A stretch of DNA of 64,000 nt, from assembly GCF_006345805.1 (NCBI RefSeq), contig NC_043002.1:18166001-18230000 (forward strand), given 5' to 3'. Positions 13,945-58,172 of this stretch are shown here, in pieces. The DNA comes from Octopus sinensis (taxonomy: Eukaryota). Below the pieces are notes generated by a model that made no database searches, was not told the origin of the DNA, and saw only the letters and a program-made list of their open reading frames with translations. Every line of letters starts with the position of its first letter. The stretch's first letter is position 1. A program made the translations under genes and the position numbers.

Positions 13945-15023
13945 ATATCTATACAATATGTTAATTACTCGGTAGTCAAGATAAAACTCTGAGTTTCAGA
14001 TGCCGAAGTGGAAATCCACAACACCATCTCTTCGGTTATCTGGCTATTTGAAAACGTTATGAAAAAATACCGTTAAAAATGAAGGGAAATTACTCTGTAT
14101 AACTCTGCTTTGCCTGCGTACTTATACATCGCTCGCATTTTTCGTCATAAATTATATAAAAATACATAAAAATATATAAAAATATATAAAAATATATAAA
14201 ATCTTCTTGGGAACATAACACAGAAAGCATGTTCTATCCGTTTTCTTAGGGGACCAAAAACGTAACAGAAATTTAGTCACATGTGGGCATGATCCGAAAA
14301 GCTCTGCCCTTGTATTTAGACATGTGGTAGGGTCTAAGCTGCTTTTCCAGATAAGCCATCTCCATGTCGCATAAAACCGCACCTTCCGCTGCCGTTAGTA
14401 TAGGGCTTACATCTGGCCAAAATCTTCCATTGTATGTTATAATCGACACCTTTATCTCTTAAAGACCAAATTGATTGGATAATTGTGTCGCTTTTCTTTT
14501 GTTCCAGTGCCTAAAGCTCAAAGTGTGGTTATTGAACCTGGCCTTGAAATTACCCTCTATCAGGCCCACGTATTTCTTCGTCGAAACGGTGTCTTTAGTG
14601 GTTATAGAGTTTACGGTAGCTTCATATATGATGGTCTTGGACATGCAAGCTCCATTTAGGGCACAATCTTTATTCCTGCATGAACAGCTGTTTTCTTCTT
14701 TGTTTTTTGTATGTTATGATTGATTATGTTTTTAAAATGGTAGTTGAACTAAAACTAATTTTTAAATTGTGTCTATTAAAGAGTTTCCTATAAGCATGGT
14801 TAACTGGAAAATGTCTATCTATCAGTGCTAGGAAATATTTACCTATATTGAAGGCCACCTCGGGTGAGTAGGGGGCGTAAACCAGGACCTTCCTATTTCT
14901 ATTATTCCTTTTCCTTATGTGGGCTGGTGATAGGTGTATATTTTATTTTTTCGCTAAAACCACTATCTTTTAAAGCTTTATTATAAACTGGGGCAACGCT
15001 ATTGAAGATGTCCTCATTAGATG
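13945..15023 (-). mobile_element. Inverted duplicate arm of the Penelope-like element (GIY-YIG half and 3' region)
   Basis: Reverse complement of 15218-16306. ORF 14459-14644 reads IYEATV..KKYVGLIEGNFKARFNNH. Confidence 0.9.
13979..14041 (-). ncRNA. Putative minimal type I hammerhead ribozyme (inverted copy)
   Basis: AGATAA-CCGAAGA-stem II-GAAA-CTCAGAG-TT-TTATCT, identical to 16210-16272. Confidence 0.55.
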
Positions 15024-16371
15024 TACATTAGTATAACTATAGACACTAACGTGACGGTTGTCAATTTCTTAGACGTTTCCTTAGATCTTAATAATAATAT
15101 TTATAAGCCTTATAGGAAGCCCAATGATAGACTAAGTTATATTAATGTAGGTTCATGCCATCCCCTATAGTATTCAAAAATTTAGTTAAAAATATTAGTA
15201 AGAGGATTTCTAGCTCTCATCTAATGAGGACATCTTCAATAGCGTTGCCCCAGTTATAATAAAGCTTAAAAGATAGTGGTTTTAGCGAAAAAATAAAATA
15301 TACACTATCACCCAGCCCCCAACAATAAGGAAAAGGAATAATAGAAATAGGAAGGTCATCTGGTTTACGCCCCCTTACTCACCCGAGGTGGCCTTCAATA
15401 TAGGTAAATATTCCTAGCACTGATAGATAGACATTTTCCAGTTAACCATGCTTATAGGAAACTCTTTAATAGACACAATTTAAAAATTAGTTTTAGTTCA
15501 ACTACCAATTTTAAAAAACATAATCAATCATAACATACAAAAACACAAGAAGAAAACAGCTGTTCATGCAGGAATAAAGAATTGTGCCCGCTAAATGGAG
15601 CTTGCATGTCCAAGACCATCATATATGAAGCTACCGTAAAAACTCTATAACCACTAAAGACCCGTTTCGACGAAGAAATACGTGGGCCTGACAGAGGGTA
15701 ATTTCAAGGCTAGGTTCAATAACCACACTTTGAGCTTTAGGCACTGGACAAAAGAAAAGCGACACAATTATCCAATCATATTTGGTCTTTAGAGATAAAG
15801 GGGTCGATTATAACATACAATGGAAGATTTTGGCCAGATGTAAGCCCATAAAGGCAGCGGAAGTGCGGTTTATGCGACATGGAGAGATGGCTTATCTGGA
15901 AAAAGCAGTTAGACCCTACCACATGTCTAAATACAAGGACAGAGCTTTTCGGATCATGCCCACATGTGACTAATTTCTGTTAACGTTTTGGGTCCCCTAA
16001 AGAAAACGGAAATAGAACAGCTTCTGTGTTATTTGTCCCAAGAAGATTTTATATTATTTTTATATATTTTTATATATTTTTATGTATTTTTATATAATTT
16101 TTATGACGAAAAAATGCGAGCGATGTATAAGTACGCAGGCAAAGCAGAGTTATAACAGAGTAATTTCCCTTCATTTTAACGGTATTTTTTCATAACGTTT
16201 TCAAATAGCAGATAACCGAAGAGATGGTGTTGTGGATTTCCACTTCGGCATCTGAAACTCAGAGTTTTATCTTGACTACCGAGTAATGTAACATATTGTA
16301 TAGATAAATTTCCTCTATTTACATAATATTGAGGTCTCTTTCTTTCTTTTGTTATCTTACCGTTTTATCAA
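15024..16371 (+). mobile_element. 5'-truncated Penelope-like retroelement (RT thumb, GIY-YIG endonuclease, 3' terminal region)
   Basis: NFLDVSLDLNNNIYKPYRKPNDRLSYINVGSCHP; RKVIWFTPPYS; CSCRNKELCPLNGAC..IYEATV..YVGLTEGNFKARFNNH; LSNHIWSLRDKGVDYNIQWKIL; frameshifted. Ends in (TA)n. Confidence 0.9.
16210..16272 (+). ncRNA. Putative minimal type I hammerhead ribozyme in the Penelope 3' region
   Basis: Stem I AGATAA/TTATCT; core CCGAAGA; stem II GATG/CATC with an internal GTGGA/TCCAC hairpin and a bulged U; GAAA; stem III CTC/GAG; GUU triplet at 16264-16266. Confidence 0.55.
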
Positions 16372-16439
16372 TATATATATATATATATATATATATTATA
16401 TATATATATATATATATATATATATATATATATATAATA

Positions 16440-54929: not shown

Positions 54930-55043
54930 CATATTATGATATTGTATTATATTATATATTATATTATATTATATTGTATTATATTATATTATATTATATT
55001 ATATTATATTATATTATATTATATTATATTAAATTATATTATA
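54930..55043. repeat. (ATATT)n pentanucleotide array
   Basis: Direct sequence. Confidence 0.9.
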
Positions 55044-57454
55044 TTTGAAGCTCAACTTTGACGGGCTGTTACGCCCCATTTCTGGTCTTTGGATAATGTT
55101 ATTAATGGCACATAACAATGATATTTGCAAGATATACAACGAGTATGTTTGAATAACTAAAGATGTCTGCATTTGATAAATTTGAAACGAAAGGATTGTC
55201 ACTTCCAAATAATTTTCGCAAAAATCATTTTCTCTAATCGCTCTAAGATCAGTTTGTGCAACTTCAGTTTCCACTGCAGTCAGACACTACTTATTAATAC
55301 TGTGTCCAGAGAGCGCTAGCTAGGCTAATTCATATAACCCAAGCCGATTCATGTGAAGTAAAATCGTTGGACTCTTGCGATGTAAAGAAGGCTGCTCGTT
55401 CTTAGCTTCTAGTTTTCAAGAGTAAGTAGTCGAAGTAGCTTATGGAATTTCATGGCTAGTGATTTTTGTGCGTGACTCTTCATGCGTCTGGCAATTATTA
55501 TTATATCTTTCTCGCAAAATAATAAGCAAACAGCAGGTATAGTATTCAAAATCCGAAATATTACAGTTGTAGACTCAATATACAATCAGTAGCGTCCGCA
55601 AAAATTACAATTATCAAGGTTAAATCTCCAAGTACATACATTTTCCTACATGTAAATTATCATCCACAAGCTCACATGTCAGGAGACAGACAAAACACTT
55701 TTTTCGAGGATGTCCGAACAATATCTTCTCTCTCAAAGCTAAATGTGCAATCAGAGAGAGAGAGAGACAGACAGACAGACAGAGATAGAGGGTACGAAAG
55801 AAAGAAAGAAAGAAAGAAAGAAAGAAAGAAAGAAAGAAACTGAAGAACTTATATGTATATTTTTTTCCCGCTGAATGTGCTTTTGTCGATAACAGTTTCA
55901 TGAACTATCGAACTGTGGCAATGCAGGATCAGTCACATCTACTTAGGTTACAGGATCTACGCGGGATATAATATGGATTACAGTTGGCTTCCACTGGCCT
56001 CTTCACATGCTAGGCCACTGGTTACTCTGACATTATTAATTATTGACATTTTTTCTGTAAATGTTTCGAAATAATGCCGGTGTTATTTTTTTGCTGCCAA
56101 CAAAAAAAACTGTGCTCGCGCGGTGGATTTGAAAAATTATAAAGTATAAGCATGAGGCACATACTGGATTGCCTCGTACTTATATCTTTAATCTAGGCGT
56201 ACCTGTTGATGAAAACTTCGCCTAGCAAATTATCTTATTTGTCAAGTCAGAAACCATGGTCCAGGAGATAGAGGGTAAATGATTTTAGTTTTCATTCCCT
56301 TCGAAATTTTAATCCCTAATAGTAGTTTGGACTTTGGCTGTTCCTTCTAGCGTGCCAGGATTCCTATGACGGATACCTCTTACGTGTTCAAATGTACAAT
56401 GTATGTATATATATATAATATATATATATATCTATATATATATATATATATATATATATATATATATATATTATATATATATATATATATATACATATAT
56501 ATATATATATATATATATATATATATATGTCTGTGTTCCTGTGTAGATGTTGGTGAGTATCAATATGTATGCGTGTATGTGTATTCAAATGTATATATGT
56601 ATATATATATATATATATATATATATATATGTATGTATGTATATATATAAGTGCCTATGTGCATATATACGTGTTCGTGTGTATATGTTTATGTAGGTGT
56701 ATGTGTTTATATATGTGTCTGCATGTGCGTGCTCGTACGTGTATATTGTATGGCTGTTATGTACTAGAGGCATATTTCTAGCTTAATAATCGGTTAGAAA
56801 TACGCATCGCTTACTTGATTTCTGTCTCGCGACTGTCAATATTTCTTTCCCCTTTTTAGCTTGTTCTATTATTTTTGTTATTGTTTCATAAGATCTTCGT
56901 TCCCCACCTTTCTATGGTTGGACACATTTACATTCAAGAGAGAAGGCATTGTTCTGCCATCCTTCATATGATGCTTTGTCTATCTCCTGCTATTTTGTGT
57001 GACAAGCGAGGTTACTGATAATTTGCTGAGAAGAAATAGCGTATGTTTTGGAGCCATTAACATAGAGTAGTGTATTTATTGTAGGATACTGATGACGTAA
57101 AGTGCATAACATAACATTTCCTCTACAAGAAATACATCGGCATTTTGCCTCATACCCGTTTTCTGCTTGTTGCACACACAAAAACACACACACAAACACA
57201 CAAACACACACACACACACCACACACACACACACACCACACATATATATATATATATATATATATATAATATATATATATATATATATATATATATATAT
57301 ATATATATATTATATTAATGTCTGTTTTTATGTTCAGTTAAAATATAAAATAGCAGTAACGTCGGTTCCCATGGAACAGCCATGTCCGAGTGGCGATACA
57401 CATAACTTTTATGATATAAACGATTTTACACGAATCTGAAAGAGTACAAATATA

Positions 57455-58172
57455 TTATATGTTAACAAGAATAGTATTGATGGCGACCTCGAAGTCTCGG
57501 GCAGCTAAGCTGTGAGGCATTGGAATTAATCTTGACATAACATAGTCTCTCTTGAGATAAAAACAAATTTTTTTTCTCATGTAAGTGGAGTTCTGTTGAC
57601 TAATAGTTAGGTTATAGGGAAGTTTGTAATGTAGAGATGATATGCAAAATACTTTATTGATTAAATTTAGAACTATGTTATTGTTCACAGTTTATTCATG
57701 GCAGTACAAGGTTGTTAACAGCTATGTATATTTAGGTGTGTCATCTTCAGGTCATGGTGTTGATTTTAAGGGGGTCAAAACATGACATGATGTGGATAGG
57801 AAGGAGTTATTTGGTTAGCGGATATGTTGCAAGTTTTAGTTATTGTTGACTTTATTGGATTTAATCCTTTGTTTTGAAAATATAGGTGTCAGAGTTCAAA
57901 GTTTTAATCCAGCTTTTAAATATATACACCTGCATTACTAAGTTCTGAACAATAGCAGTTTCATAACCAATCAATATAGAATTTTGCTATGAAACCTCTC
58001 AATCACAACCTACTCTACAGCGTAATTAATATGCAATAGAACTCCACCTACCCGAGGAGAAAACCTTATCTCAACAGAGATTATATAAAGACAAGAGTAG
58101 CTCAAATGTATCACAGTCCGATGATAGCTTAACTAGCTGAAACTTCAAAGTTACTGTCAATACTGTTGTAGG
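57455..58172. mobile_element. Diverged Penelope-type inverted pair (arms ~57460-57640 / ~57990-58172)
   Basis: agtattga..gaagt..taagct..ttgagataa..gtggagttct recurs as a reverse complement; hammerhead fold in the right arm; (TA)n flank. Confidence 0.55.
58113..58157 (+). ncRNA. Putative type I hammerhead ribozyme (C4 core variant)
   Basis: ACAGT-CCGATGA-T-AGCT-taact-AGCT-GAAA-CTT-ca-AAG-T-T-ACTGT; all three stems fully Watson-Crick; GUU triplet at 58150-58152. Confidence 0.68.

Follow-up and report, generated by a model that had tools for sequence, protein, structure and literature searches.

The five families of motifs that we examined in a 64,000-nucleotide stretch of the Octopus sinensis genome (the window) are supported by their sequences as minimal hammerhead motifs, of type I, that belong to Penelope-like elements (PLEs). 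We put at about 0.8 the probability that such a motif belongs to the pseudo-LTR, or 3' repeat, of a PLE family and is likely a hammerhead that would cut RNA only as a dimer paired through stem III. All five families share one layout, namely stem I, a core of seven nucleotides containing G5 and A9, stem II, GAAA, stem III, UH and again stem I, with an extra nucleotide, absent from the initial annotation, adjoining stem II in four of them, and all are high-copy. The copies in the window are solitary or inverted 5'-truncated microsatellite insertions, and probably inert passengers.

The initial annotation had proposed five cores in type I folds, and a letter check recovered every core that it named. 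A core-agnostic descriptor, which leaves positions 3, 4, 6, 7 and 8 free and was composed after the sites were seen, gives exactly five matches in the window; none (0/5) has the strict CUGANGA core. The 2916 local dinucleotide shuffles yielded 1077 matches (0.37 per window), including 328 with a 3-8 pair (0.11 per shuffle, about 30%); five matches were reached in a single shuffle and more than three paired matches in none. Applied unchanged to 600 kb of blind genome samples, the descriptor found 14 matches (7 paired) against 3.75 (1.12) in shuffled sequence, and in a further 200 kb it found one, paired, against 1.20 (0.31), which is chance level; both samples together (800 kb) hold 15 matches (8 paired) versus about 4.9 (1.4). 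Matches are thus enriched over dinucleotide-shuffled sequence, the comparison that the initial annotation had named among its refuting conditions, in the window and in the blind sequence overall. The motifs might still be read as accidents of a loose, post hoc pattern in AT-rich repeat DNA, given when the descriptor was written, the proportion of shuffled matches that are paired, and matches that probably are accidental, such as TGGTTAA within the family A gene. This is the least probable reading that we considered, and for the five families it is refuted: the enrichment was repeated in the 600-kb blind sample, every motif stands at the place expected in a PLE, and homologs in other organisms carry the canonical core there. 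No hammerhead appeared among the 150 listed of 386 Rfam matches, and a control locus with a canonical core (L373) was likewise without a hammerhead match.

Family A is present as two inverted arms. The minus-strand arm (13943..15023) is 5'-truncated and extends from the RT thumb through a GIY-YIG remnant and the 3' end into (TA)n; it is 95% identical to L332, a full-length natural copy, and is matched by the homolog P0002 in tblastn (E 3e-35). The forward arm (15028..16382; tblastn E 5e-29) comprises a frameshifted RT end, a CxCx5C linker, GIY-YIG, the 3' UTR and a tail into (TA)n. Both bear a motif with the core CCGAAGA (C3-G8, U4C): on the minus strand at 13979..14041, detected by the descriptor, with a predicted cut after 13985, and on the forward strand at 16210..16272 (core at 16216-16222), detected by the descriptor and folding, with a predicted cut after 16266. 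The initial annotation had the former core at 13979; the core is indeed present, but 13979 is the low end of the minus-strand copy and the core itself occupies 14029-14035. The minus-strand motif has an extra U before G12. This additional nucleotide, restricted to the 3' side, is U in 35/35 copies and C in a relative, and it pairs with A9 in the lowest-energy fold. Stem II is long, and stem III (ACTCAGAGT in the forward arm) is near-palindromic, with one central mismatch. The link to the gene is seen in both window arms and in L332 (RWK, DKT), and the family has the Hydra-clade protein features RWK, DKT and a CxCx5C linker with CxxC and CxH flanking it; its unit, shorter than 3 kb, targets (TA)n, as in that clade. 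In a tandem full-length element two same-strand motifs are 2585 nt apart. A candidate alternative hairpin sequestering the core (CCGAAG with CTTCGG) was dropped, because the relative L072 does not preserve it. Separately, in four sequencing runs, which consist of contigs and carry no ends, strand or level, the family A motif has a greater summed depth than the gene of the family; 5' truncation alone suffices for this, and we give the difference no weight as evidence.

Family C is represented by a pseudo-LTR stub at 25529..25709 on the minus strand, with L331 as the full-length element. Its motif (25597..25634, minus; descriptor and folding) has the core CTGTTGA at 25623-25629 (C3-G8, A6U), the palindrome ACGT and a predicted cut after 25602. 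In L331, 681-nt direct repeats flank a gene encoding DKG and YIDD motifs and a Zn-finger linker, and a tandem full-length element carries two same-strand motifs 4273 nt apart; direct pseudo-LTR pairs were seen in families A and C only. We tentatively term the family Neptune-like from DKG and the CX2-5CxxC-type linker. The degenerate CTGTTGA copy noted earlier at 16504 is a decayed family C-type motif (16507..16544, inside a stub at about 16483-16629); however, it lies on the plus strand, and G5 is gone from its core (CTATAGA at 16512).

A family B 3' stub, 92% identical to L336, occupies 18501..18657 on the minus strand, and contains a motif at 18554..18589 (descriptor and folding) with the core TTGAAAA at 18580-18586 (U3-A8), the palindrome ACCGGT and a predicted cut after 18557. 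GIY-YIG is found upstream of the motif in L045 and L032, scoring in L045 just under the Pfam cut-off (E 1.5e-4, 22.4 bits versus 22.6), and the tentative Neptune-like label here reflects the endonuclease. A sixth family, F, overlooked by the initial annotation, also has the core TTGAAAA (39754-39760), followed by stem II and GAAA, within 39740..39863 on the plus strand. Through deletion the window copy lacks stem III as well as the 3' strand of stem I, and the motif is intact in 5/8 loci fetched.

Family E, an old Hydra-type family, has a 3' stub at 57994..58160 (plus) with an inverted arm at 57441-57920. Its motif (58113..58157, plus; descriptor and folding) has the core CCGATGA at 58118-58124 (C3-G8, U4C), and a predicted cut after 58152; in this copy a CpG-type change has eroded the stem III palindrome. 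L242 and L270 hold Hydra-type remnants (tblastn E 2.5e-13 and 5e-13) that are continuous with the family E 3' region; these decayed remnants are 21-36% identical to Hydra-type proteins over long segments, the diagnostic motifs not being recovered.

Family D occurs as a fold-back of two 3' ends (31206..31540) carried in a composite repeat that is young and some 2 kb long, with a second, decayed copy at 3823..3898 (minus). The plus-strand motif (31411..31461) has the core GTGAACA at 31418-31424 (G3-C8) with stems I and II broken, while the minus arm (31359-31399) has an intact 3' half and lacks the 5' core. The 31411 copy fails the descriptor through a G.G mismatch closing stem II and one stem I mismatch, both common to the 30/30 most similar loci. 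In the window the type I fold holds for A, B, C and E, whereas the layout of family D is kept by the family and not by this copy; 30 loci retrieved with another copy gave 29 family matches. Family D alone exceeds the Pfam GIY-YIG cut-off (L297, E 6.1e-5), and an intact GTGAACA motif lies downstream in 8/12 protein-chosen loci; one of these eight is the locus of the query itself, and three are near-identical loci. Its Nematis likeness, with a long insertion in the RT, was judged by eye against Nematis rows of a published supplement. Pfam is generally weak on the proteins studied, with no family for L330 or L004. Homologs from other organisms with 45-52% protein identity have the cores CUGACGA, CGGACGA, CUGAGGA and UUGAAAA, the motif being present in only 5/13 homologous loci (two by the descriptor, two by a looser pattern and one, with C at position 9, by eye).

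Most B, C, D and E copies are 200-350 nt stubs with no gene nearby, and no PLE gene was found beside family F in 8 loci, as would befit non-coding retrozyme- or SINE-like repeats independent of Penelope genes. We hold this to be very improbable: longer copies of all five families run into PLE genes, their 5' ends staggered as truncated insertions would leave them, and short head-to-tail motif arrays are absent from the family loci examined. For A-E it is largely refuted by L331, L332, L297, L045 and L242. The proposal that these are PLE motifs of the minimal type I hammerhead kind is supported, each of the five families being tied to a same-strand RT/GIY-YIG gene.

Positions 3 and 8 had been said always to pair, and they form a Watson-Crick pair in 5/5 window matches and in all five family majorities: C3-G8 in A, C and E, U3-A8 in B and G3-C8 in D. 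As three of the five families are C3-G8, there are only two swaps. Across families the positions are paired in 12/15 groups (permutation p 0.0014), and since relatives of family D elsewhere carry C3-G8 or U3-A8 the covariation is homologous; a tree built from 12 D-clade proteins leaves 7/9 inner branches open and so fixes neither how many swaps occurred nor their sequence in time. Selection, which the initial annotation had invoked, is suggested only between lineages by this covariation. Within families, single changes at 3 or 8 are uncompensated, no family showing a compensated one. In sets of C, D and E chosen without reference to the motif, the core is significantly more conserved than its flanks in D alone (14/259 versus 390/3475 non-majority letters, from copies that are not independent), p being 0.21 in C and 0.24 in E; the corresponding test for B is biased by its query.

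Folding gives pair probabilities of 0.69-0.92 for stem I and 0.74-1.00 for stem II, and of at most 0.32 for monomeric stem III where it can form; the stem III palindromes are perfect in B, C and D. We propose that a read-through transcript of a tandem element would bring two motifs together, that their pairing may be aided by the element's protein, and that the paired motifs would then be cut after H17. Positions 3 and 8 would drift between element lineages yet remain paired because the tertiary pair is needed for catalysis.

It is unlikely, in our estimate, that the hammerhead-derived motifs of certain families, namely C with its U6 and perhaps A, no longer cut and persist as a folded protein signal or as hitchhikers. 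U6 is uniform in family C, occurring in 30/30 copies picked on upstream sequence and in both L331 repeats, while a related subfamily retains A6 (CCGACGA); moreover, in vitro insertion persists in cleavage mutants (PMC11167929) and Naiad elements thrive without canonical hammerheads (PMC8557442). However, family C keeps G5, G8, A9, G12-A15.1, the stems and the palindrome, with one compensated stem I pair difference from the A6 subfamily, and the 3-8 pair, kept across lineages, is not obviously needed for a role confined to binding. We favor dimer-dependent cutting, and consider it unlikely that two young protein-coding families (with G3-C8 and with U6) have spread with cores that should be crippled, through rescue by a protein of the element itself or a role other than cutting. 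If so, C-G, U-A and G-C relatives in one clade would be a natural series on the role of cleavage in retrotransposition.

The novelty of a diversified, non-canonical set was overstated: numerous divergent families in one genome, and a U3-A8 family that the authors' first descriptor missed, are already in Cervera and De la Pena (2014, PMC4209133). That study published minimal PLE hammerheads with their architecture, a stem III that is palindromic, U3-A8 (UUGAAAA) and weak dimer cleavage. Of the core variants, C4 and U3-A8 have been published as tolerated, and G3-C8 works when engineered. The new host confirms the abundance of PLE hammerheads and shows whole families escaping CUGANGA searches; extrapolated from 8 paired matches versus 1.4 expected, the genome would hold intact motifs on the order of 10^4, a rough figure because the blind sample is only 800 kb. 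The natural G3-C8 family with its C3-G8/U3-A8 homologs and the U6 family with its A6 sister are ready-made comparison pairs, bearing on whether, and with what help, PLE ribozymes cut in the element life cycle. Lünse, Weinberg and Breaker (RNA Biol 14:1499), to go by the title, reportedly describe numerous small PLE hammerheads with short stem III and dimer cleavage. The accessible literature yielded neither a natural G3-C8 PLE nor a full-length element fixed for U6, though Lünse 2017 may list both; in the passages found, G3-C8 is an engineered state (in one paper with data not shown), A6U came up in a work on twisters, and nothing on these variants concerned octopus or cephalopod hammerheads.

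The motifs resemble the minimal hammerheads of PMC4209133 in being type I with a short stem I and palindromic stem III, in the U3-A8 variant, in the extra nucleotide between 9 and 10.1 (C, D and E), and in having mostly solitary or inverted copies and many divergent families per genome. Its Schistosoma mansoni(4) row has the UUGAAAA core of family B; G3-C8 (D), U6 (C) and C4 (A, E) are not in the passages of text and supplement available, nor is a cephalopod row, and 'octopus' has 0 occurrences in the searchable part. Among natural variants, Perreault et al. (2011, PMC3088659) report U3-A8 covariation, U4C and A6C; A6C gave low activity, whereas family C has U at this position, and A6U and G3-C8 are not in the passages seen. 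Family A shares with Hydra-clade PLEs, including Hydra-1_Obim (Craig et al. 2021, PMC8557442), protein motifs, a unit shorter than 3 kb, (TA)n insertion, an odd-length near-palindromic stem III and the extra nucleotide, which frequently precedes GAA in their File S2. In contrast, family A has this nucleotide on the 3' side only, and the Hydra cores listed there are all CUGANGA, unlike CCGAAGA with its long stem II. In the Poseidon element PAc of Anolis (Frangieh et al. 2024, PMC11167929), C3G or G8C abolishes cleavage, which returns in part when both changes are combined; by that account, cleavage is unnecessary for in vitro insertion and no RNA-seq reads end at the cut site. The G3-C8 pair that was engineered in PAc is, in family D, the natural state of a young and abundant family.

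The cores of the five families of Penelope-like elements (PLEs) considered here, A-E (CCGAAGA, TTGAAAA, CTGTTGA, GTGAACA and CCGATGA), are all present where the initial annotation had placed them in the window, G000:C6:18166001-18230000 of the 2.72-Gb Octopus sinensis genome. Our search descriptor demands stem I, G5, A9, stem II, GAAA, a short stem III and UH, leaves positions 3, 4, 6, 7 and 8 free, and permits one additional nucleotide beside stem II. It matches the window five times, with positions 3 and 8 paired in all five, against 0.37 matches and 0.11 paired matches per shuffle (2916 shuffles), an excess over shuffled sequence that the annotation had named as a check. 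Because the descriptor was composed after the sites had been seen, it was run unchanged on evenly spaced genome stretches. A 600-kb sample gave 14 matches, 7 of them paired, versus 3.75 and 1.12 in shuffled sequence (highest match count among 224 shuffles, 11), and a further 200 kb gave 1 match versus 1.20; pooled, there are 15 matches versus about 4.9 and 8 paired versus about 1.4. Motif density in the window is above the genome average. Microsatellites are abundant throughout the window, and a run of 100 Ns near 17430-17530 touches no motif. Fragments of other repeat-encoded proteins lie at 588-926 (-), which we take to resemble the end of a LINE reverse transcriptase (RT) of RTE type, and at 60320-60652 (-), which has a CPRC motif and is present in loci L302 and L341 too.

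The association with PLEs proposed in the annotation is borne out by traces of an RT and/or GIY-YIG gene linked to all five families, each of which is abundant in the genome (990, 1253, 1739, 273 and 327 candidate loci for A-E, 40 scored each, figures that are not copy numbers). Family A is represented by two 5'-truncated 3' ends in inverted orientation to each other (13943-16382), encoding the RT end and a GIY-YIG domain. Its tandem unit at L332 has two motifs 2585 nt apart, and the RWK and DKT motifs there fit the Hydra clade (PMC8557442); by eye, the protein was likened to Hydra-1_Obim. Clade names of families B, C, D and E are based on motifs rather than a tree. Same-strand GIY-YIG remnants precede the family B motif in 2/30 loci. 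In family C, 681-nt direct repeats at L331, 4273 nt apart and both containing CTGTTGA, flank a gene encoding DKG and YIDD together with a Zn-finger linker and an endonuclease. Family E copies are old (72-84% to the window's copy), and at L242 and L270 the sequence is continuous with Hydra-type gene remnants. A single reading frame with few stops crosses the family E motif in many old copies (window 58000-58170; L122-L150), and further decayed pieces lacking the 5' core lie at 21747-21859 and 57441-57920.

Family D encodes GIY-YIG within a 363-aa frame, its longest open frames reach 1042 aa, and its only named homolog, labelled Octopus vulgaris, is at 52%. An intact GTGAACA motif lies downstream in 8 of 12 loci picked by protein alone, a count in which the query locus itself and three near-identical loci are included; the remaining four have no intact one within the flank. 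The hammerhead fold annotated at 31411 retains this core, but its stems I and II are broken, as they are in all 30 of the closest copies. Elsewhere, intact copies of the motif are common, with 25 GTGAACA, 3 GTGAGCA and 1 GTGAATA among 30 loci. The broken fold-back, here and in these closest copies, is held by a young, roughly 2-kb composite repeat (window 30700-32720), with near-identical copies genome-wide, that also contains microsatellites, a 101-nt tandem repeat and, at 31100-31189, a family A tail piece. By our count, motifs A and B of the family D RT (L346:4167-4901 (+), L333:4570-5376 (-)) are separated by about 131 residues, versus about 59 in family C. The fingers position thus holds a long insertion, in an element whose endonuclease is C-terminal; according to PMC8557442, canonical PLEs are without such an insertion.

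Covariation of positions 3 and 8 was assessed in 27 sequence groups from 1.87 Mb of fetched Octopus sinensis DNA, overlapping loci included. The pair is formed in 12 of the 15 stronger groups (at least two copies, or stem I of at least 5 bp), with 6 U-A, 5 C-G and 1 G-C (permutation p 0.0014), and in 7 of the 12 weaker ones; one of the stronger groups is probably a chance match. Relatives of family D are encoded by 13 metagenome loci. Downstream of the gene, the descriptor finds CUGACGA at L373 and UUGAAAA at L368, a looser pattern finds CGGACGA at L371 and CUGAGGA at L378, and UUGAAAC was recognised by eye at L369; the other eight, several with little 3' flank, have no motif there. Together with the G3-C8 of family D itself, these cores put C-G, U-A and G-C at homologous places. 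This variation is more telling than the count across groups; the protein tree of these relatives does not give the order of the 3-8 changes. Sets picked by upstream sequence contain no compensated 3-8 change within families: G-C is kept in 20/26 copies of D, and C-G in 28/30 of C and 12/19 of E, the others having single changes at 3 or 8, or a gap. The covariation claimed by the initial annotation holds across groups and among homologous loci but not within families. In these sets, core letters are more conserved than the flanks in family D only. U6 is fixed in family C (30/30 copies), with A6 in its sister; a core of CAGTAGA, with A4 and U6, occurs in family C-type copies at L042, L059 and L060, which may form another decayed subfamily. 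Further hammerhead families occur at L202, L050, L090, L206, L013, L323, L310 and L037. Stem II and its loop are alike in L202 and L050 (U3-A8) and L090 (C3-G8), which may be relatives with a swapped 3-8 pair.

On folding, stems I and II have high probability, and stem III, which is self-complementary, does not in the monomer. This predicted fold fits the published model of paired motifs cutting after H17 (PMC4209133): two motifs on one tandem transcript would pair and then cut after H17. The window's motifs are solitary, inverted or broken, with motifs on opposite strands because copies are inverted, and are probably inert. Published PLE hammerhead activity is weak (PMC4209133). In a lizard PLE, activity required the element's protein, cleavage was not needed for insertion in vitro, and an engineered G3-C8 swap gave partial rescue (PMC11167929).

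The PLE hammerhead motif set is real and correctly read, and it brings an already known kind to a new host. What the annotation took for a non-canonical set consists of genuine PLE hammerhead motifs, but PMC4209133 already describes the same architecture, genomes with many families each, copies paired in inverted orientation, and U3-A8, with the UUGAAAA core among its examples. Likewise, Hydra-clade motifs with an additional nucleotide before GAA are reported in PMC8557442, and U3-A8, U4C and A6C occur naturally (PMC3088659). Neither a natural G3-C8 in a PLE nor A6U was found in the searched portions of the literature, for which PMC6765202, PMC3884650, PMC11662667 and bioRxiv 10.64898/2026.07.22.740005 were also compared; Lünse et al., the likeliest source for both, lies outside that coverage. 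Relative to these published hammerheads, the remaining interest lies in the G3-C8 family D, whose homologs include C-G and U-A forms, and in family C with a fixed U6 beside an A6 sister.
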